Below, piece by piece: positions 605 through 26,201 of a stretch of 32,000 bases of DNA (position 1 is its first letter; each line of letters starts with the position of its first letter). This stretch comes from Promethearchaeum syntrophicum (GTDB taxonomy: Archaea > Asgardarchaeota > Lokiarchaeia > Sigyniarchaeales > Promethearchaeaceae). The stretch spans positions 3,180,001 to 3,212,000 of the forward strand of contig NZ_CP042905.2 in assembly GCF_008000775.2 (NCBI RefSeq). The letters are read 5' to 3'. The notes under the pieces were generated by a model. The model was not told the origin of the DNA. It searched no databases and saw only the letters and a list, made by a program, of their open reading frames with translations. The translations under genes were made by a program, and so were the position numbers.

Positions 605-1675
605 ATGAGAAAAAAAAATGAATATATGAAATTACAGAAATCTTTCAAAAATAAGAAATTATTTATCATCCAATTTTCAACCACTGATATTTTTCAAAAA
701 CCGTCTATAGCAACACACTTTTTTGCATTAGATTATTTTAAAGACACTGAAGTTTCAATCGAATATACCTCAAATAATTTCTTTTATCAAATTGAAAAGT
801 TCTTTAAGAAACATAAAAAATATCACTTCGCTTTCTGGAATTATAATCATATTTATAAGATTTCATTGCTAATCCCTGGAATTTCCCTTACGGAAAAAAA
901 GGTAATAGAAAGAAACATTATTGATCTAGACGATGCGTTTGAGTTTTTTTCTGAAGAAAAGAAAACTCGATACTTAAAACGCCAGAATCAAAGTATCGAT
1001 AAAAGATATTATTTTAGTCTTTTGAATGGATATAATATTGATGAATCTTTTTGGAAAACTGGTATTGTCGAAAAGGATTTGCGGGATGCAATAATTTTGA
1101 GTAATTCTTGTAGATTAAAATGCAAAGTAATGAGCTTTTTAATAACCAAAATGAAGGATGGAAGAGTAAAATTTGATCATAATGAAGAATTCATGAGAAA
1201 AACAATAAAATTCATGGAATTGCAGAAAATTTCATCTGATCAGAGTACAAATACAATTAATTTTTACAACAACATATGGAATCTAATAAATAGAGATATT
1301 AGAATTAAATGCCAGACAAAATTTCATGATGGATATTTCGCGGATTCAGTGGAAGCAGCATTCAAAGAAATAAATACGAGAGTAAAAACATATTATCATG
1401 ATTTAAAAGGAGAATGGGGTGATGGGGCTTCCTTAATGCGGAATGCATTTTCAGGCATAGATCCTGTTATATCTTGGTTAGATCAAAAGGACCCATCATC
1501 ATCCAATATCCAAAAAGGGTTTGAACATATTTTTGCAGGAGCAATGATAGGAATTCGAAATCCTAAAGCCCATGCAAATTTGATCATCACTAAGGATCGA
1601 GCAATTCATTTTTTGTTTCTTGCTAGTTTACTTATGGATAAAATAGATGAGGCTAATATTAAAACCACCTCTTGA
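605..1675 (+). CDS. two-domain hypothetical protein with a C-terminal TIGR02391/Hypoth_Ymh-like (HEPN-like, RNPKAH) domain
   Basis: 356-aa ORF. The C-terminal ~110 aa (ASLMRNAFSG...FEHIFAGAMIGIRNPKAHANLIITKDRAIHFLFLASLLMDKIDEA) fit my recollection of the TIGR02391/Ymh signature (LMxxAF ... RNPxAH ... helical tail). RNPKAH is an Rx4H motif. The N-terminal ~220 aa are unrecognised. Confidence 0.75.
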   Translation: MRKKNEYMKLQKSFKNKKLFIIQFSTTDIFQKPSIATHFFALDYFKDTEVSIEYTSNNFFYQIEKFFKKHKKYHFAFWNYNHIYKISLLIPGISLTEKKVIERNIIDLDDAFEFFSEEKKTRYLKRQNQSIDKRYYFSLLNGYNIDESFWKTGIVEKDLRDAIILSNSCRLKCKVMSFLITKMKDGRVKFDHNEEFMRKTIKFMELQKISSDQSTNTINFYNNIWNLINRDIRIKCQTKFHDGYFADSVEAAFKEINTRVKTYYHDLKGEWGDGASLMRNAFSGIDPVISWLDQKDPSSSNIQKGFEHIFAGAMIGIRNPKAHANLIITKDRAIHFLFLASLLMDKIDEANIKTTS

Positions 1676-1746
1676 ATTTCTCTTTGAATAATAAATAATT
1701 AGAATCGTATGAATTTCATCGAATTTTTACCAATGATGATTAAAAA

Positions 1747-2835
1747 TCAAGTTTTTATTGTTTGAAATAATATTTGGTATAATCCGGAAATTTGTGAAAT
1801 AATTACACTCACAATTAATATTTCATCAGAAATTTCTTCTATATTTCCCAATTTTCCTTGAATTTGCTTTTGATTATTAATATCAATTAATAACCTCTGA
1901 TTTTCATGAATTATGATATTGGAATGGGCAAGTGCATGACGTATTTTTGCATAGATTTCCATTAATTGATTTTTTGTGGTCGGTACAATATCAAATTTAA
2001 AAAGAAGTATATAGAGCTCATTAACTTTCTCAATGAAATTATAGAGATCAATAAGCGATACTTCAATTTCATGAAAAATCTTGTAGGATAGGGTTTGGTT
2101 CAACCAAAAAAGATTTTTACACAAATACTTTAATCGATCCAATATCAAATCTTGTTCTTCTTTATCTTTTTTTGCTAAATTTGGTTGAAGAATTATGTTA
2201 ATTAAATATTCGTCATCTATTGGTAATACTCCGTTAAACATTGAAATACCTGCTAAGATAAAATTATATTTGGAACTATAATTCGGGGATATCTTATTCG
2301 AAAAGACTTTTACCAAGCGTTCTATGAACTTTTTTAATCTTGGTATAGAATTTGAATACCCTATAAGATGAATTAATTGGCGATAATTTAAATTGGTTGG
2401 ATCTACCTTTTCTATCGGAAAATTAAATATTTTCGCTATCTTTTCAATCCCCCATTTACATTGTTTCTCTGATATTTTATGCGTTTCCAAAAAAGATTCG
2501 GGGAGATAAAGGATATGTTTGAAAAAAAAAGGACGCCTAATAGGCTTGAAATCATATAAGGATAATGGATCAATAGATCCATTGCATTTTTTACAATTTA
2601 ACTTTATATCCTTCGGACATTTGATAAATTCAATTTCACCTTTTTTTATAATTTGGAGTTGTTTAGGAAAAAATCGAAACTTTATAACTTCATCGCATGA
2701 TTTGCATTTACATTTTGCGAGAATTTCTCCATACTTGTCTAGTTGAATATCCAATTTCTTCACCTCTATAAATTCATTAAAGAATTCCAGGTAATTCCCC
2801 GCTTTTCTAACATTTTTAGGATCTCCACATTCCAT
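1747..2835 (-). CDS. hypothetical protein: N-terminal zinc ribbon plus helical C-terminal region with an Rx4H (HEPN-like) motif
   Basis: 362-aa ORF with cysteine clusters CKCKSC ... CPKDIKLNCKKC (CxCxxC/CxxxxxxCxxC). The C-terminal helical region contains YAKIRHALAHSN (R-H-A-L-A-H = Rx4H). The ATG at 2835 overlaps the upstream FRG gene by 70 nt. An in-frame GTG at 2763 lies 2 nt after the FRG stop, so the true start is uncertain. Confidence 0.7.
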   Translation of the reverse strand: MECGDPKNVRKAGNYLEFFNEFIEVKKLDIQLDKYGEILAKCKCKSCDEVIKFRFFPKQLQIIKKGEIEFIKCPKDIKLNCKKCNGSIDPLSLYDFKPIRRPFFFKHILYLPESFLETHKISEKQCKWGIEKIAKIFNFPIEKVDPTNLNYRQLIHLIGYSNSIPRLKKFIERLVKVFSNKISPNYSSKYNFILAGISMFNGVLPIDDEYLINIILQPNLAKKDKEEQDLILDRLKYLCKNLFWLNQTLSYKIFHEIEVSLIDLYNFIEKVNELYILLFKFDIVPTTKNQLMEIYAKIRHALAHSNIIIHENQRLLIDINNQKQIQGKLGNIEEISDEILIVSVIISQISGLYQILFQTIKT

Positions 2836-3758
2836 GATGATGGATAGTTTATAATATAATGCTCGTTATCTTTGAATGATAACACTTCAAAATCTTCTTC
2901 TTTTTCCAATTCGAAAGTAGCTAGTAAATCACCTTTCTTTATTTCTTCCACAGCATTTTCAAGATTCATCATCGCATCCATGAATGGAACTCCAAAAAGA
3001 GGGGAAAAGACCATCCATCCACTTTGAGCAATCATTCTTGGAATTTCTTTTTTAGCAAGACCCAAATGGCTAGAATTAAAAGATCCCAGCAATAGTGATT
3101 TATTTAAAACATCTTGTCTGGCAATTTCAAATAAAATTTCTGCTTCCTCAATATTTGATGGGTTTTGAGGTGCTCCTATATTTTCTTCTGAACTTGTAAA
3201 ATAAACCCCCAATATTTTGGAAGAGTCCATTATTAAGCGGAGAATATTTAAAATCCAAACTCCAGAATCACCTTTATGAACTAAAGGTATAGATCTTTTT
3301 TTTTTTTCAGATTTTTTATAATCAACAGCTGAAAACCATAAAGCTACTAATAACCTAGAAGAAAAATCAACTAACCTAGTTCCACTCTCTAAATGTTGAT
3401 GTTTTGCCATTCGCTGAACGTAAAAAGGAAGATGATTCGAATAATTAATTAATCGAAATTCTTCTTTTTCTTGAGTTTCCTTAGATGGATATCTCCGTTC
3501 TAAAGCAGAAGTGATAGACCAACTGGGAGTTGAGCTTTTATCTTCATCCCAATTGTAGGTGTAATTTTGCCCTCTAAAAAGAAAGCCTGCTGCTTTACCT
3601 TCCTCTGTTCCCTTTACTTCAAATTTTTGTGCTAATTTGAACAAAATATCAATATTCTTCGGATTTAGAATTGATAATGATGTCTTTTGAATATAATTTA
3701 AATCTGGAAATTTGACTTGAAATTCCTTTTTTCTTAGTCGTTGAATCATTGGATGCAT
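2766..3758 (-). CDS. FRG-domain protein
   Basis: 330-aa ORF carrying the FLFRGQ motif followed by AKHQHLESGTRLVDFSSRLLVALWFS and later RMIAQSGWMVF. This matches the FRG family pattern (FRGQ ... QHxGxxTRLLDxT...AlxFA ... aQxGxF). Confidence 0.8.
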   Translation of the reverse strand: MHPMIQRLRKKEFQVKFPDLNYIQKTSLSILNPKNIDILFKLAQKFEVKGTEEGKAAGFLFRGQNYTYNWDEDKSSTPSWSITSALERRYPSKETQEKEEFRLINYSNHLPFYVQRMAKHQHLESGTRLVDFSSRLLVALWFSAVDYKKSEKKKRSIPLVHKGDSGVWILNILRLIMDSSKILGVYFTSSEENIGAPQNPSNIEEAEILFEIARQDVLNKSLLLGSFNSSHLGLAKKEIPRMIAQSGWMVFSPLFGVPFMDAMMNLENAVEEIKKGDLLATFELEKEEDFEVLSFKDNEHYIINYPSSWNVEILKMLEKRGITWNSLMNL

Positions 3759-3861
3759 GTAATTTCTTTAGTAAATACAATTTTTAAAGTTGACCAGATT
3801 TAGATAAATTGTACTCAAACCATGTAATTCTGAGAGATAGAATAAAATTGGGAAAATTTAG

Positions 3862-3958
3862 TGGGTCCGGGGGGATTTGAACCCTCGGAATCCAGCTTTC
3901 TCCATTTTAAGATTAAATACCGAAGGCTGGCGCCCAATCCAAACTAGACTACGGACCC
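3862..3958 (-). tRNA. tRNA-Arg(UCG) with a 22-nt intron at canonical position 37/38
   Basis: Minus-strand hand fold: acceptor GGGTCCG/CGGACCC, U8, D-loop AGTTTGGATT, anticodon stem CCAGC/GCTGG, loop CUUCGG|A, T-arm GAGGG-TTCAAAT-CCCCC, discriminator A. The intron ends sit in 3-nt bulges (GGU and AAA) separated by the 4-bp helix CUUC/GGAG, which is a BHB motif. Oddities are an A50.C64 mismatch in the T-stem and U at position 21. Confidence 0.8.
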
Positions 3959-5899: not shown

Positions 5900-8791
5900 T
5901 TAAATGGGGCGCGAATTCGCTTGGAAAATAGGATAAATAAAACTACTGAAAATCTGTGCATAACCATCTTGTAGGGAAACTATGGCAATTAAATCTTCTT
6001 CTTTTTTAGCTCGTGGGCAAAGAACAATTTCTTCTCCGTCTCGGGATACTGCATAGAAATCATTTGCGTTCTTCAAATTTCTAAATTGAATATTCCCTAA
6101 AACTTTCATTTTTTGAATAATAGGACCAAATGTAGCCAAATCCCAGGTTGTAGTATAGAGGAACCTGACTGATTTCTTCACGTATGCAACTTCGGAAAGT
6201 GCTTCCAGAATCTTTGGTTCTACGGTTGGAGTTATAATCGTGATAGTAGATTTAACCCTTCTCATAGCATCTATTATACATTCTAAAAGAGCTTTTGTCC
6301 CAAATACATGCCAAGTTCCACTTTCACCAAGAGGTTTAATGCTGGCTGCGCTTTGATTGATATCAGTAAGTTTATTTTCATTTTCTTCTGCAATATCAAT
6401 CCCTTCATCAATTACATTCATGAAAGATAAAGTGAAGTCTGCAATTGCATCTTTTGTATTTTGAATATTATCTGTTGTTGTTTTCACTAATTCCTGTTGC
6501 AAGTTATTAGAGATTTCTTGGTATTGGGTTTTATGTTCTTCAATCATAGCATGAAGTGTTTGTTCGAGATTTGTGGAATCTTCAGCGAATAATTTCATTT
6601 GCTCATCCAAATCATGGTGTTGTTTTTCATCAAGTTTTTCAACAATTTCCTTAAATTTCTCAATATGACCATTAACTTGGTTCTGTTGAGTTTCATTGAT
6701 AGTGGCAACTTCATTCTTAAAAAGTTCTATTTGTGGATTGATTTTGCCACTGATTTTTGTTTTACATTCGTTAATGTCTTGATCTACTCTTCTAATTAAA
6801 TCATCAATTGTCGCTCGGTAATCTGTTTTAACATCTTTTACTTCTTTTTCGAAATCATAAGAGTGAGAATCGTTTTTATCAGTATTTTCCTTTAAATGAC
6901 CTGTGATATCTCGAATTTGATTATTAGTTTCAACTGAAATATCGGTTTTGGCTCTTTCATGATCTCTATCCATGTTTTCATAATATTCGTTTACTTTTTC
7001 TTGAACGCTAGCATTAGAATCATCATTATATTTTAGACCCGTTTGTCTATGCTTGTTGAAATTCAATTCGTAATCGTCGCGATGTGTATGTAAACTATTT
7101 TCAAGTGAATCTTTCAATTTAATTGTAGTTTTCTGGCAATGCTCGACATTATGTTTCAAAGTTTTATCAATTTCTGAGGATAATTCTCCAGCTAAACCTT
7201 CAAATTCAGCATCTATCGTATCTTTTTGCTTACTGTCTAAGGATTCAGTATTAGCTTTTTGCTTACTGTCCAATGATTCAGTGATTTCATTGATTTGAGT
7301 TGTTAATGAATTTGTTGTATCACCAGTTACTTTGATATAATTGGCTGTACTATCTTCGAAATTTTCCCTCATTGAGCCAGAAATTGCTTCAATTCGCTCT
7401 TTCACTTCTGCGTACCTTTCTTTATATAATTTGTGCCTTCCAAACAGAAGTGACTTCCATGCACTGCCTCTTTTTGCAAGATGCTCAGTTAATTCACCAA
7501 AACTTGCACTGATTTCTTGAAGATTGTCTATTAAACTGACAGTATTGGATTTGAATGATAATACTTGGCCTGCTAAATCACTATGTTGTGTGTTAATTGA
7601 TTCGTTTAAATTATTTCTTAAATTTTCATTAGAATTTTCAAAATGTTCAATATGTTCAGCAAGCATACCCGAGATTTGAGTTTTTAAATCATCTATAATC
7701 TTTTTGAACCTGAAAATATATTTTTCCAGAATTTCTTCTAATTGTGGTTTCAAATTATCAGCATGTTCTCTATGATGTTCAACGTGTTCATCCAAATCTT
7801 GTTTACATTCGATCTCTAATTTATGAACCCGATCTTTGAAATCACCTAAGACATCATCAACGATTTGGTTTAAAGTGGTTTTTTGAGTTTGAACACCATC
7901 ATCAAATTTCGTTTTAAACCCCTCTGAATTATTTTTTAGTTTAGAATTTAATCCATCTAACACCGTATGAAGATTGTTTTCAAGTTTTTTCGTTTGACTT
8001 ATATGATTATCAGAGAATAATGCCAGTGCATTATTTAATTCCAAATTATCAGTAGAGAATTTTGATGTATTATTATCTAGGAAAATAACCGCTTCATCAT
8101 GTTTTAAATTAATTTGGTTCACAAAATTTTGATTTTCATCATCCAATTGTTCATGTAATTCTTGTTCTAATGTTTTTAAGCTAGTTTGAAGTCGATCACG
8201 AGCGCTTTCCGTAGTATTTTTAACGTTCTCTGTAAATTCAGTTCGAGTTTCAATAAATCTATCACGAGATTCAAAGGTGGCTCGTTGAATTTCATTTTCT
8301 AAGGGTTTACAGGTAGCATCAAATCTTTTTTGAACTTCTTCGATTTTAGATTTCTTATCTACATCATGCTGATCGCTTTTTTTAAAAATATCTTCTACTG
8401 CTGTTTTAACGGATGTATCAATTGTTTCTAAAGATTTGGTTTCAATGGAGTCTAAATTGGCGAATCTTATTGATTGATCGGAAAGGACCGAATCTTTAAT
8501 GTGTGTAATTTCTGCTCGAAATTTAGCCGATTCACTTACAAATAATTCGAAAAATGGTTCTAAGGGGATGTATCGATCGACAATTCCTTCGATTTTTTTA
8601 ATGAAATTTATCTCACATAATTTTTCAGTGATAAGTTTAATTTCTTGAAGATCTTTCTCTAAAATTCCCGCCACTTCTGATACAGTAATTTGTGGTTGGC
8701 TTAGGAAAACAAGATAAACTTCAAATTCAAAGTCGCTGAGGCCATAACGTGTGTATATTTCTTTAGTATTAATCTGTTCTTTTAAAGACAT
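5900..8791 (-). CDS. TrmB-like wHTH protein with a giant central coiled-coil region
   Basis: 963 aa. The N-terminal ~95 aa look like a TrmB-type wHTH (GLSDFEFEVYLVFLSQPQITVSEVAGILEKDLQEIKLITEKLCEINFIKKIEG). The C-terminal ~135 aa look like a TrmB C-domain (GTWHVFGTKALLECIIDAMRRVKSTITIITP...). The middle ~730 aa are charged, His/Asp/Glu/Lys-rich and helical or coiled-coil-like. Confidence 0.8.
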   Translation of the reverse strand: MSLKEQINTKEIYTRYGLSDFEFEVYLVFLSQPQITVSEVAGILEKDLQEIKLITEKLCEINFIKKIEGIVDRYIPLEPFFELFVSESAKFRAEITHIKDSVLSDQSIRFANLDSIETKSLETIDTSVKTAVEDIFKKSDQHDVDKKSKIEEVQKRFDATCKPLENEIQRATFESRDRFIETRTEFTENVKNTTESARDRLQTSLKTLEQELHEQLDDENQNFVNQINLKHDEAVIFLDNNTSKFSTDNLELNNALALFSDNHISQTKKLENNLHTVLDGLNSKLKNNSEGFKTKFDDGVQTQKTTLNQIVDDVLGDFKDRVHKLEIECKQDLDEHVEHHREHADNLKPQLEEILEKYIFRFKKIIDDLKTQISGMLAEHIEHFENSNENLRNNLNESINTQHSDLAGQVLSFKSNTVSLIDNLQEISASFGELTEHLAKRGSAWKSLLFGRHKLYKERYAEVKERIEAISGSMRENFEDSTANYIKVTGDTTNSLTTQINEITESLDSKQKANTESLDSKQKDTIDAEFEGLAGELSSEIDKTLKHNVEHCQKTTIKLKDSLENSLHTHRDDYELNFNKHRQTGLKYNDDSNASVQEKVNEYYENMDRDHERAKTDISVETNNQIRDITGHLKENTDKNDSHSYDFEKEVKDVKTDYRATIDDLIRRVDQDINECKTKISGKINPQIELFKNEVATINETQQNQVNGHIEKFKEIVEKLDEKQHHDLDEQMKLFAEDSTNLEQTLHAMIEEHKTQYQEISNNLQQELVKTTTDNIQNTKDAIADFTLSFMNVIDEGIDIAEENENKLTDINQSAASIKPLGESGTWHVFGTKALLECIIDAMRRVKSTITIITPTVEPKILEALSEVAYVKKSVRFLYTTTWDLATFGPIIQKMKVLGNIQFRNLKNANDFYAVSRDGEEIVLCPRAKKEEDLIAIVSLQDGYAQIFSSFIYPIFQANSRPI
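7222..7282 (-). repeat. 33-nt tandem duplication inside the coiled-coil gene
   Basis: ctttttgcttactgtctaaggattcagt (7222-7249) and ctttttgcttactgtccaatgattcagt (7255-7282) are 26/28 identical. They encode TESLDSKQKAN/TESLDSKQKDT. Confidence 0.8.
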
Positions 8792-16474: not shown

Positions 16475-16675
16475 TTGATCATTCCTGTGCGTTGTTTTTC
16501 CTGTGGTAAACTAATTGCAGATAAATATGAGAGATATATTGAATTAATGGGAGATAATCACCCCATTGAAGAAATTTGGAAAGAATTAGGAATTACCCGA
16601 TTTTGCTGCAAGAGAATGTTTACATCTCACGTGGAAATCGTTGATGATTTGCTCAAATTCAACCGACTGCAATAA
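16475..16675 (+). CDS. rpoN: DNA-directed RNA polymerase subunit N (Rpo10)
   Basis: MIIPVRCFSCGK...RFCCKRMFTSHV is the RpoN/RPB10 zinc-bundle signature. The apparent start codon is TTG. Confidence 0.9.
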   Translation: MIIPVRCFSCGKLIADKYERYIELMGDNHPIEEIWKELGITRFCCKRMFTSHVEIVDDLLKFNRLQ

Positions 16676-16701: not shown

Positions 16702-18966
16702 TTAAATTCCCAAAGATTCTTTTTCGTTTTTTGCACGTATTTGAAGCGTCTGATTACCTACCTTTAAGAATTTCTTCTCTGCATGATCATATTGTAAATA
16801 TGCTTTTTGTGGTTCTTTTAAAACTCTGTAGATGGACCCCATTTCTAAATGTATATGCCCTTGTTTAAATATATCGCCTTCTTCTTCCAAAATTTTTAAA
16901 GATTCTTCATAGCATTCTAATGCTTTTTTCCATTTGGCTGTTTTTTGATAGATCACCCCGATATTAAATTGATTATGCGCAATTTTAGATGGAATCTTTA
17001 AAACTCGATATTTTTGCAGGGAGCTATTCAGAATATCTAATGCTGGAACGAAATCATTTTTTAGGCGTTTAATCATTCCGATATTACTTTCTGCATCTGC
17101 AATTCCTTTTTGATCATTTAGATTTAAAAATATTCTTTGAGCATCAAGACATAATGTTAAAGCTTTATCTAAATCCCCAAGATCGAGAAATATAATGGCG
17201 ATATTCATGGAAATTTGTGCCTTTTCTGTTGGAAATTGCAAGTCATTAGCGATCTGGAATGATTGGTAGTAAATTTTAAGAGCATTATCCAAATCCCCGC
17301 GATTATGATAAAAACTTGCCAAATTGTTCAATTTTGAGATAACTCCTGATTGATTATCTAGTGCTTTATCAATTTTTATTGATTCTAATATTAATTGGGT
17401 CCCTTTTTGAATATCTCCTTTATTTACATATATAAGACCTAAATTCCCTAAAATTGTAGATTTTACATTAAGATCCCCAATTTTACTCTCTGATTTCAAT
17501 AATTTATCATAGATTACCAAGGCAGCATCTAGTTTTCCTTGAATTAATAAAATTTCACCTTTGTTCACAAGTCCACCAATAATTACTTCATAATCTTTGA
17601 GAATTATTGCGGTATTGATTGCTTTATCATATAGTCCAATAGCTTTATCAAACTCTCCCTTAGATCTAACAATTGAACCTAAATTGATATAAAAAGTCAT
17701 TTGCATTGATAAATTTTTAAATTTTTCTGCAATCTCCAACCCTTTTTTATAAAATGCAGTAGATTCTTCCTTTTTTCCCCATCTTTTATATGATAACCCA
17801 AGATAGTTATAAAAATACATTTCTTCTTGGAATTTTTCTTGTCTGTGAGAAAGATTGATGCCTTTTTTGGCACATTGTACAACCTCTTCATACATATTAA
17901 AATTTGAATAAATATTACATACAAATTTATACTTATCAACTTCCTTTATTTTTAATTGAAGGGATTGAAAAAAATCCTTAAATTCAGATTTTTCGCCAAT
18001 TTCATCTATTTTTACTGAATCTACTAAGATATCTTCTAAAATAAATTTCCATAAAGCATCTTTTATGAATTTTTGAGTATTAGTTTTAATACGATATACT
18101 TCCCCCTTGGTTTTTTTACCCAGATTAAAAAGAGTTAGATCAAGAGGTGTGAAATCAGATTCTGACTTTTTTCCTAATATATCAGATACTTTTTCAACTG
18201 TGATTGCATTATCCATAGAATGTTCAATCCAGATTAAACGTTTCAATGATTTTATATGACTTAACATAGGAGCAATATCAAAATCATCACTACCCGAATA
18301 TCCAATTACTACTAATGTTCGATCTATGAATATCTTTTCAATCAACGGCTTTTTAAAAGGCTCTATATCAAAAGTTTTACCCTCTTCCTTGTTACTTCCG
18401 AGTGCTTTCATCGTTGTAATGACAGAATCACTCGTTTTAGCGCCTGTGATTATGTTATACTTGGATCCGTGAATTTTAATAAGCGGATATCTGGAAGATT
18501 GAATAATTTGAGATAAATCAATATATTTTGTGAAATCTTCTCGGGTTATAATTGGAATAATATCTTTATGTTTTTCAGTAGAAATTATTTTTTTTAATGC
18601 GAATTCAATTAAATAATCAAAATTGGTAGTAATAACGTAATTTGCTTTTAAAATAGCATAGGCTAAAAATAAATGTATTAAATTTGGATGAGTAAATTTC
18701 TCAAAGTAATCTAACATTTTTAATTCATTATCAAACCTATTTTGAACTTGTTCAATTATCATTTCATACCGCAATCCTTTAATAGATTGGGATTTTGTTA
18801 ATTCTTCAGAGGGAATACATGATTCTAATAATACCCTAATAATAGATTTTGCAGAAGGTAGATTGGAAGGAGGATTCATTGAAATACCTGCTCCAACTAA
18901 AAAAGTATACATCATTCCTTTCTCAAAAAGATCATTCAGGGTTTTATCATTTTTTGTAAAAATCAT
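16702..18966 (-). CDS. SIR2-like (SIR2_2-type) domain fused to a TPR array of ~9 repeats
   Basis: 754 aa. The N-terminal ~260 aa carry FLVGAGISM, YVITTNFDYLIE, LIKIHGSKYN and LVVIGYSGSDDFDI, which are the GAGxS / TTNxD / hHGS / GYSxxD motifs of SIR2-like NAD-binding domains. From about aa 380 to the end there are ~9 units of exactly 40 residues, for example LGNLGLIYVNKGDIQKGTQLILESIKIDKALDNQSGVISK. Confidence 0.85.
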   Translation of the reverse strand: MIFTKNDKTLNDLFEKGMMYTFLVGAGISMNPPSNLPSAKSIIRVLLESCIPSEELTKSQSIKGLRYEMIIEQVQNRFDNELKMLDYFEKFTHPNLIHLFLAYAILKANYVITTNFDYLIEFALKKIISTEKHKDIIPIITREDFTKYIDLSQIIQSSRYPLIKIHGSKYNIITGAKTSDSVITTMKALGSNKEEGKTFDIEPFKKPLIEKIFIDRTLVVIGYSGSDDFDIAPMLSHIKSLKRLIWIEHSMDNAITVEKVSDILGKKSESDFTPLDLTLFNLGKKTKGEVYRIKTNTQKFIKDALWKFILEDILVDSVKIDEIGEKSEFKDFFQSLQLKIKEVDKYKFVCNIYSNFNMYEEVVQCAKKGINLSHRQEKFQEEMYFYNYLGLSYKRWGKKEESTAFYKKGLEIAEKFKNLSMQMTFYINLGSIVRSKGEFDKAIGLYDKAINTAIILKDYEVIIGGLVNKGEILLIQGKLDAALVIYDKLLKSESKIGDLNVKSTILGNLGLIYVNKGDIQKGTQLILESIKIDKALDNQSGVISKLNNLASFYHNRGDLDNALKIYYQSFQIANDLQFPTEKAQISMNIAIIFLDLGDLDKALTLCLDAQRIFLNLNDQKGIADAESNIGMIKRLKNDFVPALDILNSSLQKYRVLKIPSKIAHNQFNIGVIYQKTAKWKKALECYEESLKILEEEGDIFKQGHIHLEMGSIYRVLKEPQKAYLQYDHAEKKFLKVGNQTLQIRAKNEKESLGI

Positions 18967-19071
18967 TATGGTTTATTATTTAAATTTTGATATATTAAAT
19001 AATTCTCTACTATTGAAATCTGTAAAAAAAATAGTATAGAATTATTGGTAAAAATAAAAAAAGCAAAAAAC

Positions 19072-19794
19072 TTAAAAAGTGAAAGATATTTCATCGTCTT
19101 CTGATGGTTTTTTACCCTTTTTCTTCTTTTTCATTTCAGAAGGAACATAACTAGCAAAAGCTTGACCCTTTTCGATCGAAAGCGTATCCTCAACTTCATC
19201 AGAATACTGGATTTTTTTCTTTGAAAACCCGAATATCCATGAGTGAAGAATAAATACCGCTATTTGAAATGTCAAGCTTACCAAATGAATCATTCTCCAC
19301 GTATTAGAGCCATCGGTAATCACTAACATAATAGTGCCAGCAACTATTTGAGAAAATGTGATGGAAATAAACAGAAGAAATCCAGTAAATATTGTCACGA
19401 TATTATGTTTCCGAAATTGAATACACCCAATAAAATATACCAAAATACCAATAAATAATATAATTCCACCAATATTATACAGAGATTCAAAGAGCGCTCC
19501 AGTAAACCACGAAGTCATAATTAATCCTAATGCGATAATCATGATTCCTCCCCCAACTTTCAAAAATAACTTTCCTTTTATGAATCCTGAGGCTAATACA
19601 ATAATCAAGCCAAGATAGAACAAAATTGTCCAAATTACCCCCAAAGGACTTGTGCTACCACTAGTAAAAGATATTGAATCCCGGTAATTTTCCCATGATA
19701 AATCATTATTCATTGTATATCCTATAGCTATATTAAGAAAAATTCCACCAATAGTTGTGAAAACCGCCCCTATTATTGCCCCAATTTTAACCAT
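19072..19794 (-). CDS. polytopic membrane protein with a charged C-terminal tail
   Basis: 240 aa with ~6-7 hydrophobic segments and the tail KKKKKGKKPSEDDEISFTF. It is on the same strand as the SIR2-TPR gene and 105 nt upstream of it. Confidence 0.6.
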   Translation of the reverse strand: MVKIGAIIGAVFTTIGGIFLNIAIGYTMNNDLSWENYRDSISFTSGSTSPLGVIWTILFYLGLIIVLASGFIKGKLFLKVGGGIMIIALGLIMTSWFTGALFESLYNIGGIILFIGILVYFIGCIQFRKHNIVTIFTGFLLFISITFSQIVAGTIMLVITDGSNTWRMIHLVSLTFQIAVFILHSWIFGFSKKKIQYSDEVEDTLSIEKGQAFASYVPSEMKKKKKGKKPSEDDEISFTF

Positions 19795-19968: not shown

Positions 19969-20067
19969 AGCCGCGTATGTTAGTGGTAGACTTCCGGGTT
20001 GTGGTGTAATTTCTGAATGATTTTACGCAAATTCCCGGCGACCCTTGTTCAAACCAGGGCGCGGCTA
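19969..20067 (+). tRNA. tRNA-His(GUG) with a 28-nt intron at 37/38; A1:U72, A73, no encoded G-1
   Basis: Hand fold: acceptor AGCCGCG/CGCGGCT, U8, D-arm TGTT-AGTGGTA-GACT, anticodon stem CCGGG/CCCGG, loop UUGUGG|U, variable CGAC, T-arm CCTTG-TTCAAAC-CAGGG, discriminator A. The intron ends sit in bulges GGU and AUU separated by the 4-bp helix UUGU/GCAA, and the outer helix is GUAA/UUAC. Confidence 0.75.
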
Positions 20068-20198
20068 CTATTTTTATATCTTTTATTTTTTATTTATGTT
20101 TTTATCTATTTTGTGTAAAAATTTATAATATTTCTACAAAAAATAAAACTATTTTTTATTGATATCTTAATATTTGTTAGCTGAGTAGATAATAACAT

Positions 20199-20819
20199 AT
20201 GAAAGATTCTTATAATGAATATTTAGAATATGAGCAGAAGATGCAAAGAGAAGGATTATTTGAAGTAATTTCACAAAAATTTGAGATCAAAAAAGCAATA
20301 TATCCTGGTAGTTACATACATATCTCACCTTCTTTCTATTTTGAAGAAGTTGTATATATTGACAGTGATAAAAAAGCAAAGAAATTTTTTGCGGATAATA
20401 GTTTTGAGAAACTAATAAATCATAAAAAAAGGTATTCTAAAGAGATATGTTTCAGATTCTATCCTACCAATTTTAAAAATATACTACCTGAAGAAGAAGC
20501 ATATTTTGATTTGCTTATTTCGCAGTATGCAGGTTTTATTTCTAGAGAATGCAAAAAATATTTAAAAATTGGGGGAATTCTCTTAGTAAATAATTCTCAT
20601 GGAGATGCACAACTTGCAAAACATGATCCAGACTATGAATTTATTGCGGTGATCAATTTTAGAAATAAGAAGTTCTATTATTCAACTAAAAATCTTGACG
20701 AATATTTTATTCCTAAAAAAGAAGGATTAAAAATAGATTTGGAGTATTTTTTATCCATCAATAAAGGCATCGGATTCAAAAAATCAGCCTCGCACTACGT
20801 TTTCAGAAAAATACGATAA
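20199..20819 (+). CDS. hypothetical protein, possibly Rossmann/methyltransferase-fold
   Basis: 206 aa. The order AIYPGSYIHI / VVYIDSD / FDLLISQYA / LKIGGILLVNN mimics class I methyltransferase motifs I, II, IV and post-IV but lacks a GxGxG loop. This is a weak call. Confidence 0.55.
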   Translation: MKDSYNEYLEYEQKMQREGLFEVISQKFEIKKAIYPGSYIHISPSFYFEEVVYIDSDKKAKKFFADNSFEKLINHKKRYSKEICFRFYPTNFKNILPEEEAYFDLLISQYAGFISRECKKYLKIGGILLVNNSHGDAQLAKHDPDYEFIAVINFRNKKFYYSTKNLDEYFIPKKEGLKIDLEYFLSINKGIGFKKSASHYVFRKIR

Positions 20820-20835
20820 ATTTAAAGAATAATAT

Positions 20836-20867
20836 CGACGATCAATGTTCAATCTAGAGCGCGGCTA
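20836..20867 (+). pseudogene. degenerate copy of the tRNA-His 3' half (att-like remnant)
   Basis: GTTCAATCTAGAGCGCGGCTA (20847-20867) versus tRNA GTTCAAACCAGGGCGCGGCTA (20047-20067) is 18/21 identical. Over 32 nt the match is 25/32. The alignment is ungapped at an offset of exactly 800 bp, and the copy can no longer form a T-stem. Confidence 0.6.
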
Positions 20868-20888: not shown

Positions 20889-21719
20889 TTATGAGATTTT
20901 TTTCTTCGATTTTGAAAACCCTCCATGATGGAATGCAATTTTACATTGTAGAGAATTATCAATACAGTAATTTTCAATATCTTGCTCTAGAAGATCCCAA
21001 AATGATTGATCTACACGAAGAGATTTATAGAATGGGAGGTAGTTTGGATAGGTTTTTTTAATTAATTTATATATTCTACCTACATTGTGCGGTCTAAAGT
21101 TTAAATTTTCAAAACGGTAGTAATCAGTAAATTTTAATGAGTATTGAATAATTTCCTGATAATCTGTTATTTTCGGAAAGATTGGTGAGATGAAAACATA
21201 GGTTTCGATACCTTCCTTATGAATTTCTTCTAAAGCTTTAAGACGATCAATAGGTTTTGAAGCGAAAGGTTCAATTTTTCGAGCAAAATCAGAATCTAAA
21301 GTGTTTAAAGACACTCCAACTTCTATATTTTCAAATTGCTTAAATAAATCAATATCCCGTGTAACCAATTGAGATTTGGTGAGGATTGAAATTCTGGCAC
21401 TTGTGTCTTTTAAACTGGATAAAATTTTCCGAGTATTTTCAAATTTCTTTTCTAATGGAAGGTAGGGATCTGTTACTGAACTAAATAGGATATTTTTTCC
21501 ATTATACTTCGCAGGTTTAATTTTTTCCCAGGGATAAGATTTAATATCCAAAAATTTTCCCCAGATATCTCCTTTATGATTGGTAAATCGTTTCATAAAT
21601 TCCGCATAACAATAAATGCAACCATGTTGACAACCAGTATAGGGATTAATGACATAATCGATAGCGGGGATATTACTTTTTGTAATAATACTTTTTGCTT
21701 CTCGAAATTCAATTTTCAT
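20889..21719 (-). CDS. radical SAM protein (SplB / DNA-repair-photolyase-like, COG1533-type)
   Basis: INPYTGCQHGCIYCYA carries the CxxxCxxC radical SAM cluster motif in the N-terminal context typical of SplB-like proteins. Confidence 0.85.
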   Translation of the reverse strand: MKIEFREAKSIITKSNIPAIDYVINPYTGCQHGCIYCYAEFMKRFTNHKGDIWGKFLDIKSYPWEKIKPAKYNGKNILFSSVTDPYLPLEKKFENTRKILSSLKDTSARISILTKSQLVTRDIDLFKQFENIEVGVSLNTLDSDFARKIEPFASKPIDRLKALEEIHKEGIETYVFISPIFPKITDYQEIIQYSLKFTDYYRFENLNFRPHNVGRIYKLIKKTYPNYLPFYKSLRVDQSFWDLLEQDIENYCIDNSLQCKIAFHHGGFSKSKKKIS

Positions 21720-24770: not shown

Positions 24771-26201
24771 ATGGAAGAGAAACCTCAAAAGCGGAAAAGG
24801 AAATTAAATCTTCAAAAACCGTCTGGGACTATTGACTTTTTTCCAGAAGAAATGGAAAAACGACGGTGGCTTATTAGAACTATCGAAGATCTCTTTAGAA
24901 AATTCGGGTTAGAGCAAATTGAAATACCGATGTATGATTTTTTCGAATTATACAAAGTGCGCTCTGGAGAAAAAATAATTAATGATATCTTTACTTTTTA
25001 TGATCCCCCAAAACACCGTGTTGAGGAAAATCCCCCACTCTATGCATTACGACCAGAATATACTGCTTCATTAGTGCGTTGTTATAATTCAACTGAATTG
25101 ATGTATAGGCCTAAACCTCAGAAATTTTTCTATATTGGACCATGTTATAGGTATGATGAACCCAAAAAAGGAAGATATCGACAATTTACGCAAGCAGGGA
25201 TAGAGATATACGGATCAGACACAACATCAGCGGATGCTGAAATGTTAATAGTGGCCATTGAACTGATGAAGAAACTAGGAATCAAGGACTATGTTCTCAG
25301 AATTAACGATTTAACTATTTTAAGAACATATTTACAATCTAATAATTTGGAACTTGAAGCACAAAATAAAATATTTGGGATCATCGATCGGATAACTAGT
25401 TCTTTACGGAAAGGGGAAATAGGGGCAATTCCAGATTTTAAAGAGCAAGATTATATTGATGATTATTATGCCTCTATGAATGATTTAGGAACAGATCGGA
25501 AGATTATTGAGAAATTAGAATCCTTTTTATATCTAGTGGGAACTCCTTCTAAAGTTCAAAAAGAACTGCAAAAACTCTTCAAATCCGAACCAGAGATGTT
25601 AATAATTATTCAAAATTCAAGGTTGCCAGAAGTCTGTGAATTAATCGAAGCAGCAGGAGTAAAGAAGAATGAGTATGTACTTGATTATGGAATCTCGCGT
25701 GGACTAGATTATTATACGAATACTGTTTTTGAAATAGATGTTCCTTCCCTTGGAACAGAAAAACAAGTTTGTGGAGGAGGCCGCTATAATAGCTTGATTA
25801 AGGAATTTGGGGGAGAAGAGACCCCTGCATTAGGTTTCTCATTTGGATTTGAACGTTTACTCATTGCTTTGGAAAATCAAGGCTCCATTAAAGAAAATCG
25901 CCCCCGAGCGGACGTATTTATTGGAACTAAAGAAGATACTCGTAAATTTGGATTGAAAATTGCTCAAAAATTGCGTAATTCTGATCTCTCAGTAGAGATT
26001 GATATTAATAACCGTTCATTTAAGAATGTAAGTTCATTAGTTGATCGTTTGAAGATCCCCTTTCTATTATTTATTGGTCCAAGAGAGTTTGAATCTGGCA
26101 AGTTTACCTTAAAGAATTTTATTACCAAAGAACAATATCAAGAAATTAGCTTAAAAGATGTTGTAAAAGATATCAAACAATATAAAAAAAACAAGAAGTA
26201 A
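24771..26201 (+). CDS. hisS: histidine--tRNA ligase (HisRS, class IIa)
   Basis: Motif 2 is FFYIGPCYRYDEPKKGRYRQFTQAGIEIYG and motif 3 is CGGGRYNSLI. The protein also has LRPEYTAS, a C-terminal anticodon-binding domain and a basic N-terminal extension (MEEKPQKRKRKLNLQK). Confidence 0.95.
   Translation: MEEKPQKRKRKLNLQKPSGTIDFFPEEMEKRRWLIRTIEDLFRKFGLEQIEIPMYDFFELYKVRSGEKIINDIFTFYDPPKHRVEENPPLYALRPEYTASLVRCYNSTELMYRPKPQKFFYIGPCYRYDEPKKGRYRQFTQAGIEIYGSDTTSADAEMLIVAIELMKKLGIKDYVLRINDLTILRTYLQSNNLELEAQNKIFGIIDRITSSLRKGEIGAIPDFKEQDYIDDYYASMNDLGTDRKIIEKLESFLYLVGTPSKVQKELQKLFKSEPEMLIIIQNSRLPEVCELIEAAGVKKNEYVLDYGISRGLDYYTNTVFEIDVPSLGTEKQVCGGGRYNSLIKEFGGEETPALGFSFGFERLLIALENQGSIKENRPRADVFIGTKEDTRKFGLKIAQKLRNSDLSVEIDINNRSFKNVSSLVDRLKIPFLLFIGPREFESGKFTLKNFITKEQYQEISLKDVVKDIKQYKKNKK

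Follow-up and report, generated by a model that had tools for sequence, protein, structure and literature searches.

A SIR2_2-TPR protein of Promethearchaeum syntrophicum, a candidate repeat-gated NAD+ hydrolase from an Asgard protein family

We have analysed a window of 32,000 nucleotides (nt) from the genome of Promethearchaeum syntrophicum MK-D1 (contig NZ_CP042905.2, positions 3,180,001 to 3,212,000; G+C ~30%; all coordinates below are those of the window), and have mainly focused on a gene on the minus strand at 16702-18966, whose product of 754 amino acids (aa) joins an N-terminal SIR2_2 domain to a long array of tetratricopeptide repeats (TPRs). The protein may be a TPR-gated NAD+ hydrolase similar to the bacterial immune protein DSR2 in its logic, and, reasoning by analogy with characterised systems, we give this reading an even chance of being right. 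Sequence comparison places the protein as a genus-restricted paralogue within a large, Asgard-wide SIR2_2-TPR family.

The open reading frame (ORF) has a 100% match to the NCBI entry "tetratricopeptide repeat protein" of P. syntrophicum. This ORF and the next one on the same strand, which encodes a 240-aa membrane protein (19072-19794), are found as described in an initial annotation of the window, with a gap of 105 nt between them. The motif set GAGIS, TTNFD, KIHGS and GYSGSDDFD listed there is also present, and profile searches with Pfam agree with its naming of SIR2_2 and TPR_12. The 754-aa protein has matched SIR2_2 (PF13289) at aa 111-242 (E 8.9e-10, 39.3 bits against a cutoff of 24.5), and TPR_12 (E 2.1e-33) and many further TPR models over approximately aa 385-750. 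A full-length AlphaFold2 model, calculated with an alignment of the family as input (pLDDT 89.7, pTM 0.83), consists of an alpha/beta domain up to about aa 310, followed by 21 helices with a strict 20-aa period at 342-750.

The SIR2_2 ("SIRim"-type) domain, a predicted NAD+-binding domain, has been assigned to aa 1-310 (18037-18966), including a C-terminal beta extension at aa 243-310, and the TPR superhelix to aa 339-754 (16705-17952), where the AlphaFold2 helices in their 40-aa register give ten 40-residue units and a capping helix. The unit of exactly 40 residues noted at first is retained, while the count of about nine units has been raised to these ten and the cap. A linker of about 100 aa had also been supposed to lie between the two parts. 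Most of this stretch is the C-terminal extension of the SIR2 domain, which is structured and conserved (strands at 243-260 and 289-295; W246 invariant), and only about 30 residues separate the SIR2 domain from the first TPR helix in the model. No NTPase or other domain was found between the SIR2 and TPR parts by Pfam or in the AlphaFold2 model. Pfam, PADLOC, the model and the window ORFs scanned gave no domain or neighbour of the NTPase/STAND, SLOG, APAZ, HerA, TIR or Ago type, in agreement with the initial description of a SIR2 domain joined directly to TPRs without an NTPase, Ago, SLOG or HerA domain or neighbour.

The residues at the catalytic positions, S29, N115, D117 and H166, are all intact in the target protein. 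In an alignment of 48 family members, the motifs GAGIS (S29), TTNFD (N115, D117), KIHGS (H166) and GYSGSDDFD are invariant or at least 90% conserved, the invariant residues being G25, A26, G27, S29, T114, N115, D117, K164, G167, G222, Y223, S224, G225, D227, F229 and D230; H166 is at least 90% conserved in this alignment and invariant in a 12-sequence alignment of the N-domain. Sequence comparison with the PDB was made with a profile of these 12 N-domain sequences, and a single-sequence phmmer search of the N-domain against the PDB gave nothing relevant. In the profile comparison, the family motifs align one-to-one with GAGtS, TTNFD, KIHG and GYSGrDe of the SPARSA SIR2 (E 1.3e-3), and the Asn motif is aligned with ITQNID (N99) of Sir2Tm (E 9e-3, the match spanning the NAD loop and the Asn motif).

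The N-domain was also modelled alone (pLDDT 83.5) and compared with the PDB by Foldseek. The matches were SPARSA SIR2-APAZ (8jl0_A, E 6e-7), DSR2 (8yg1_C, E 4e-6, TM-score 0.60 on the target), SIR2-HerA (E 1e-5), KomC (E 3e-5), Avs5 (9nc9_L, E 2.7e-3) and the classical sirtuins Sir2Tm and SIRT5 (E ~0.04). By this measure, immune SIR2 proteins resemble the fold of the domain more closely than classical sirtuins do, and the Pfam model of classical sirtuins, SIR2 (PF02146), has no match in the target. The pocket residues of DSR2 are S51, N133, D135 and H171, and H171A or N133A/H171A abolish its NAD+ depletion (PMC11850899). The target has the same S...N-x-D...H pattern, a correspondence by motif pattern and not by residue-level alignment. 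Since the catalytic set is conserved and the structural matches are immune NADases, the N-domain looks catalytically competent and belongs to a class whose matched solved representatives are NADases. Pfam, Foldseek and the profile alignment thus bear out the initial assignment of a defence-type SIR2 domain with Asn and His at the catalytic positions.

DSR2 is the precedent for the layout of the target, because in that protein a SIR2 domain is joined, without an NTPase, to an alpha-solenoid repeat sensor which binds a protein ligand (PMC11850899). The likeness covers a single chain, an N-terminal SIR2 domain with the S/N/D/H residues, a directly attached helical-repeat arm and matching SIR2 folds. 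DSR2 differs in its length of ~1000 aa, its MID domain, its HEAT-like repeats, its bacterial origin (Bacillus subtilis) and its action as a tetramer sensing phage tail tube protein; identity to the target in the structural alignment is ~20%, and no DSR model is among the PADLOC matches to the target at E up to 0.1. The likeness is one of design, and not of shared ancestry of the repeat arm, which is HEAT-like in DSR2 and TPR here. The target had been called a minimal architecture that could not be assigned to a named system; it is true that no named system fits by PADLOC, but DSR2 shows that a SIR2 domain with a solenoid repeat and without an NTPase is not unprecedented.

Other known systems share less of this layout. 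The best structural (8jl0_A), sequence-profile (E 1.3e-3, with TTNFD and KIHG identical) and PADLOC (Aga_SIR2, 8e-9) matches of the target are all to SPARSA, but the target has no APAZ domain, there is no Ago gene in the window, and the PADLOC match covers aa 107-238 only. Avs5 and SIR2-STAND-TPR proteins, including NLR-like eukaryotic SIRim and SAMD9/9L, have a SIR2-type effector and C-terminal TPR-like repeats; in these proteins oligomerisation is driven by a central STAND/NACHT/P-loop NTPase, whereas the target has no NTPase match in Pfam. Thoeris ThsA carries a SLOG or Macro C-terminus and has a neighbouring TIR protein, ThsB, whereas the C-terminus of the target is TPR only; the window ORFs scanned include no TIR gene, and ThsA matched the family profile only at E 0.38. 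SIR2-HerA (Nezha) is distinguished by an adjacent gene for a HerA ATPase/helicase, and none is present near the target.

In the literature searched, no paper on SIR2-TPR proteins was found. The SIRanc preprint is the sole paper found which combines SIR2, TPR and Asgard; its 496 Asgard genomes appear in the methods only, and its TPR-like fusions concern eukaryotic SIRim only. In a survey of Asgard defence (PMC11291487), there is no occurrence of SIR2, DSR or TPR. The Asgard SIR2_2-TPR family is missed by the defence catalogues and the literature searched.

The TPR units have the consensus NlG.IY...Gd.dKAL..Y.kslkI...L.d in the 40-residue register. Because the mean pairwise identity among the units is only 19% and no tandem repeat was found in this region at the DNA level, the array is judged to be old, and a recent expansion of the repeats has been ruled out on the same two grounds. 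The closest structural matches of the arm are the TPRs of TONSOKU and LGN/Pins/GPSM2 (E 1e-10 to 2e-11). In these eukaryotic proteins a superhelix of 40-residue TPRs encloses extended peptide ligands; they are without an enzyme domain, and their likeness to the target arm is of fold only (~18% identity). From the LGN-type fold of the model, we infer that the arm may bind a ligand.

We propose a single-chain NAD+-consuming enzyme which would be controlled by its own repeat arm. The SIR2 domain at aa 1-310, with its complete catalytic set, would be the enzyme part, and the 10.5-unit TPR superhelix would clamp an extended peptide or protein in its concave groove, as LGN-type TPRs do. If it works like DSR2 and further immune effectors of the SIR2 type, binding of a ligand by the repeat arm would lift autoinhibition or cause oligomers to form, after which NAD+ would be hydrolysed by the SIR2 domain. 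The pattern of selection and of deletion in sister lineages, described below, fits a conditionally useful accessory sensor, which would most simply be an antiviral NADase of the abortive-infection type. The trigger could equally be endogenous, because a conserved branch of ~803-aa proteins in the same family is linked to genes that serve to make NAD+ and to handle ADP-ribose. In this mechanism the neighbouring membrane protein has no part.

At first the gene appeared to be a lone oddity, a view abandoned here in favour of membership in a large Asgard-restricted paralogous family. There are few close orthologues of the full protein (P0002-P0004 at 78-84% identity, and L013 at 85% over the N-domain). 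Beyond these, the full-length identity falls to 33-39% in hundreds of ~803-aa proteins from metagenome-assembled genomes (MAGs) labelled Promethearchaeota, Hermodarchaeota, Odinarchaeota, Hodarchaeota and Sigynarchaeota, and MK-D1 has a second paralogue of its own (P0078, 804 aa). A search with the N-domain found 1789 cluster representatives at E <1e-3 and 344 at E <1e-30, with lengths of 263-3154 aa; the clusters are made at 50% identity, and 344 is a lower bound. Every sampled match with a taxon name is from Asgard archaea (Loki, Hel, Thor, Hermod and Prometh). When the species representatives of GTDB were scanned, 240 loci were obtained, and several genomes have at least two copies. The best 80 of the 240 loci are labelled as Asgard or "uncultured archaeon", except for two contigs of one MAG labelled "Candidatus Nanopelagicaceae bacterium" (L060 and L091; DATKTW010000104.1 and DATKTW010000016.1). 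The G+C of these two, 31-34%, and their protein identity fit Asgard, and mis-binning or mislabelling is likely.

The GTDB loci have been clustered into three main groups and many long singletons (roughly 1000-1835 aa). Group 12 comprises 27 loci encoding proteins of ~803 aa, with one per genome among the loci fetched; group 9 comprises 20 loci (771-824 aa) in variable contexts without recurrent neighbours; and group 8, that of the target, comprises 7 loci, with 689-757 aa counted from the first ATG and 753-757 aa where the gene is complete. The family has many divergent paralogues of 450-3154 aa in variable contexts, a diversity that counts in favour of the gated-NADase reading, and relatives on plasmids are distant SIR2-only proteins with 25-28% identity. 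The branch nearest to the target is the ~803-aa group (38% identity), whose members have the same architecture and motifs, are ~50 aa longer and are annotated "tetratricopeptide repeat protein". The target differs in having none of the gene context of that branch and in being confined to Promethearchaeum-like genomes.

In 23 of the 27 group 12 loci, a NadB gene is located directly downstream of the ~803-aa gene on the same strand, and it encodes a genuine L-aspartate oxidase (NCBIfam NF006567; 686 bits, cutoff 629). One to four tandem genes for LMWPc phosphatases are located immediately upstream in divergent orientation (22/27 loci), and a MacroD-like ADP-ribose-binding protein is encoded within 6 kb in 14/27; genes for ADH synthase and subtilase are found further downstream. 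This synteny spans MAGs labelled Promethearchaeota, Hermodarchaeota, Hodarchaeota and Odinarchaeota (L006, L007, L014-L037, L041 and L086; for example, L007:6170-12081), and protein length is almost constant in the branch. The context ties this conserved branch to the making of NAD+ and the handling of ADP-ribose; it is not a defence island, and we regard it as a possible NAD+/ADP-ribose module. No description of the NadB/LMWPc/Macro-linked arrangement was found in the literature searched.

This branch suggests a different role for the target, namely a regulatory or housekeeping, non-viral one, in which a duplicate of the ~803-aa protein acts as an NAD+-dependent protein modifier (ADP-ribosyltransferase or deacylase) or as an NAD+/ADP-ribose homeostasis factor and the TPR arm recruits an endogenous partner. 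We consider such a role rather unlikely, though a real contender. It is supported by the nearest branch being the ~803-aa group at 38% identity, present once per genome in the fetched loci, by the NadB/LMWPc/Macro synteny of that branch across several Asgard lineages, and by the position of the target among core genes and its uniform purifying selection. Operons for reversible ADP-ribosylation, such as SirTM/Macro, are known to join a sirtuin to a Macro protein, and the pairing in group 12 resembles this. However, no NadB, LMWPc or Macro gene adjoins the target (window ORFs, Pfam), it is dispensable and has been deleted in close relatives, and the solved structures which resemble its domain are immune NADases, the matched SIR2_2-type ones being described as NADases and not as protein modifiers. 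The initial annotation had set its defence interpretation against single-copy housekeeping homologues away from defence islands, and the ~803-aa branch is in part of that kind, being single-copy and syntenic with NadB/LMWPc/Macro.

The gene for RNA polymerase subunit N (Rpo10/RpoN; 16475-16675, plus strand; PF01194, E 1.6e-23) is convergent with the SIR2-TPR gene, with 26 nt between the stop codons, and is kept at that position in all syntenic loci. This flank had been labelled rpoN; a gene is indeed there, and its identity is the archaeal RNA polymerase subunit. Other core genes nearby are L7Ae and S28e, together with a gene for a VTT-domain membrane protein, and aIF5B, S6e, HisRS, HAD hydrolase and Kae1-Bud32 are found further out. 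The order radical SAM, membrane protein, SIR2-TPR, RpoN, L7Ae, S28e and VTT is common to Promethearchaeum-like contigs, in which the position of tRNA-His has been placed from the window only.

The SIR2-TPR gene is intact in MK-D1, L001/L002, L003-L005 and L013. Locus L008 has only 571 bp between the membrane gene and rpoN, and these carry a remnant in which aa 1-14 (10/14 identical, E 0.045 alone) adjoin aa 564-673 (56% identity, E 6e-31), which we read as an internal deletion of ~1.65 kb in the gene. L009 and L010 have a 550-bp gap at the same locus without significant similarity to the SIR2-TPR gene. Since the gene is present in syntenic loci and has left a remnant in L008, it is judged to be ancestral to the clade and to have been lost since in some lineages. 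Among the intact orthologues, the ratio of nonsynonymous to synonymous substitution rates (dN/dS) is 0.15-0.17 for the whole gene, 0.18-0.20 for the SIR2 part and 0.12-0.14 for the TPR part. By these comparisons the gene is functional yet dispensable, being under purifying selection where it is kept and deleted in close relatives.

Decay of the gene in a sister lineage might also be taken as a sign of a scaffold or TPR adaptor without catalytic activity, in which the SIR2-like fold serves structure only, or of a gene on its way to loss; the NCBI annotation as only a TPR protein and the modest Pfam SIR2_2 match (39 bits) would be in keeping with this. We regard this as highly improbable, since the Gly-rich NAD loop and the residues at all four catalytic positions are intact and are conserved across the family, the SIR2 domain has the dN/dS of 0.18-0.20 given above, and at least four lineages have an intact ORF.

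Returning to the TPR-gated NADase, especially in its antiviral form, several results weigh against it. PADLOC gave no system call for the target, its matches being a weak, domain-level one to Aga_SIR2 (8e-9, aa 107-238) and generic TPR ones, and representatives of other family branches gave matches of the same kind. Searches of IMG/VR viral contigs and of phage records gave no relatives, and there is no direct virus link. The locus, flanked by genes for ribosomal proteins, RNA polymerase, aIF5B, HisRS and Kae1-Bud32, does not look like a defence island. The closest large branch, single-copy among the fetched loci and syntenic with NadB/LMWPc/Macro, points to a cellular rather than an antiviral role. 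Lastly, because dN/dS is 0.12-0.14 in the TPR part against 0.18-0.20 in the SIR2 part and the units are old and diverged, the sequences carry no arms-race signature. The role of sensor first given to the TPRs gains nothing from these rates, the arm evolving no faster than the enzyme domain.

The membrane protein encoded upstream of the target (DSAG12_03388; 240 aa, 19072-19794, minus strand) has about six transmembrane (TM) segments by hydropathy and no match in Pfam, PADLOC or NCBIfam, and none of its 33 homologues of ~240 aa has a Pfam domain. Its C-terminal tail (19072-19230), YSDxVEDTLSVExGQAFASYVP...KKKKK...PSEDDEI[TS]FTF-COOH, is charged and is called cytosolic, the protein in the window ending in ...PSEDDEISFTF. 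The tail is conserved in nearly all full-length homologues, with or without an adjoining SIR2-TPR gene, and exceeds the TM helices in conservation, and it looks like a docking peptide for a partner. The 105-nt spacer between the two genes (18967-19071, minus strand) has T6, T7 and T5 runs right after the stop codon and a later T8 run, and carries a TTTAATATAT box ~25-35 nt before the SIR2-TPR ATG. The oligo-T runs and the TTTAATATAT box resemble the oligo-T terminators and TATA boxes of archaeal transcription, and the membrane protein is probably transcribed separately from the SIR2-TPR gene.

These two genes could be thought of as a co-transcribed two-gene system, for example a membrane effector or anchor with an NADase sensor. 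They are on the same strand with a gap of 105 nt, and they are adjacent in 5/5 loci which have an intact orthologue and sufficient upstream sequence. The membrane protein ends in the strongly conserved acidic peptide ...EDDEI[TS]FTF, and TPR domains often bind acidic C-terminal peptides of that kind. Further, the top PADLOC match of the SIR2 part is the Argonaute-associated SIR2 class, and some short-pAgo systems use membrane effectors (PMC11788926). Other observations speak against such a system. At the same locus in L008, L009 and L010 the membrane gene is kept after the loss of the SIR2-TPR gene, in L011/L012 it is found in an unrelated context, and it is under purifying selection in comparisons involving L008 and L009. 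Its tail is equally conserved in relatives without the SIR2-TPR gene, four oligo-T runs follow its stop codon and a TATA-like box precedes the SIR2-TPR ATG, and no other branch of the family has this membrane protein as a neighbour. A two-gene system is in our judgement improbable.

Because the membrane gene persists without the SIR2-TPR gene and the spacer has terminator-like and promoter-like signals, we conclude that the adjacency is an ancestral gene order and not a two-gene system, and that the membrane protein is a neighbour and not an obligate partner. Of the initial view of this gene, its position 105 nt upstream on the same strand stands, while co-transcription is disfavoured by the oligo-T tracts and the TATA-like box in the spacer.

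On the far side of the membrane gene, a tRNA-His(GTG) gene with a 28-nt intron in the anticodon loop was found at 19969-20068 (plus strand) by the intron mode of ARAGORN, and the spliced sequence folds as a cloverleaf. ARAGORN puts the intron after base 36 of its 72-base numbering (tgtgg-intron-tcccg), and the D-stem is weak; the gene was not detected by default ARAGORN or by Rfam (gathering and E-value modes, up to E 10). The HisRS gene (24771-26201) is 4.7 kb from this tRNA gene. A direct repeat of the 3' 20-mer of tRNA-His, 17/20 identical with three mismatches (0.00 expected by chance), is located at 20847-20866 (plus strand), 800 bp downstream of the original 3' end, and is an att-like relic. 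Both the tRNA-His and this relic, as initially annotated, are therefore real. The bracketed segment (20069-20866) is on the opposite side of the tRNA from the SIR2-TPR gene, and its sole content is a 206-aa orphan ORF (20199-20819, plus strand), which has no match in Pfam, PADLOC or NCBIfam and was not found by tblastn in the relatives' syntenic loci. The segment is probably the remnant of an integrated element. Insertion of the SIR2-TPR gene at the tRNA was rejected, since the gene lies outside the att bracket on the other side of the tRNA. As to the claim of an insertion hotspot, the tRNA flank is a small hotspot, but the SIR2-TPR gene lies outside the bracket, among core genes, and varies by deletion. 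The wider framing, in which an insertion hotspot holds a defence system and its membrane partner, is only partly supported: the observation itself and the domain reading are kept, and the membrane partner is not.

Beyond the relic, the radical-SAM protein encoded at 20889-21719 (minus strand) is similar to "radical SAM mobile pair protein B" (TIGR04470), with a score of 245 bits where the cutoff is 410, and to the PADLOC candidates PDC-M41B and PDC-M30B (~4e-8). In a JGI metagenome contig (L001:2465-6523), a UvrD-family helicase gene is flanked by one complete copy of the radical-SAM gene and one partial copy (aa 118-273), a pattern suggestive of insertion and duplication at this same site near the tRNA. 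A mobile two-gene module, considered on the basis of L001, was rejected, because L001 keeps RpoN downstream and radical-SAM upstream and so represents the same ancestral locus. In relatives (L003, L008 and L009), a VapBC-like antitoxin/PIN pair is found 2-3 kb from the target locus, just upstream of the radical-SAM gene, and none was seen at the matching position in the window.

Several features of the window are separate from the above. At 605-3758, there are a Hypoth_Ymh-domain protein (PADLOC PD-Lambda-3_B-like, 1e-11), an unannotated 362-aa ORF and an FRG-domain protein (PDC-S15-like, 3e-8), which look like a small defence-like islet beside a tRNA gene at 3861-3958 (minus strand). This intron-bearing tRNA was labelled "SeC(tca)" by ARAGORN; a tRNA-Sec here is a probable artefact, and a 22-nt intron at the canonical position 37/38 gives the anticodon TCG (Arg). 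A 963-aa protein encoded at 5900-8791 (minus strand) has an unusual architecture, with a TrmB-type helix-turn-helix at the N-terminus and a long apolipoprotein-like helical region.

SIR2-type NADases are recurring immune effectors of prokaryotes with relatives in human innate immunity, and the present family fuses such an effector, without an NTPase, directly to a eukaryote-like arm of 40-residue TPRs. It bears on the way in which SIR2 effectors became coupled to sensors before eukaryogenesis or at about that time, and, since the gene is present in the first cultured Asgard archaeon, it is experimentally testable. A lead to eukaryotic SIRim proteins fused to TPR-like domains is given by a bioRxiv preprint (10.1101/2024.09.18.613514). 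With considerable doubt, we put forward a joint view of an undescribed Asgard family of NTPase-less SIR2(SIRim)-TPR proteins, in which the single-copy ~803-aa protein with NadB, LMWPc and Macro would be an ancestral switch of NAD+/ADP-ribose signalling or homeostasis, repeated duplication would have given ligand-gated NADase sensors, the MK-D1 gene among them, for conflict with viruses or other elements, and the family would be linked to eukaryotic SIRim-TPR proteins. If the family consists only of TPR adaptors or ordinary regulators, its value will be modest and at the level of annotation. If there is a NadB/Macro-linked switch with diversified sensors, it would show the recruitment of a regulator of NAD metabolism into conflict systems, or the reverse. 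The family would gain in interest if, together with its NadB/Macro-linked core, it turned out to be a distinct NAD-signalling system with kinship to the eukaryotic SIRim proteins.

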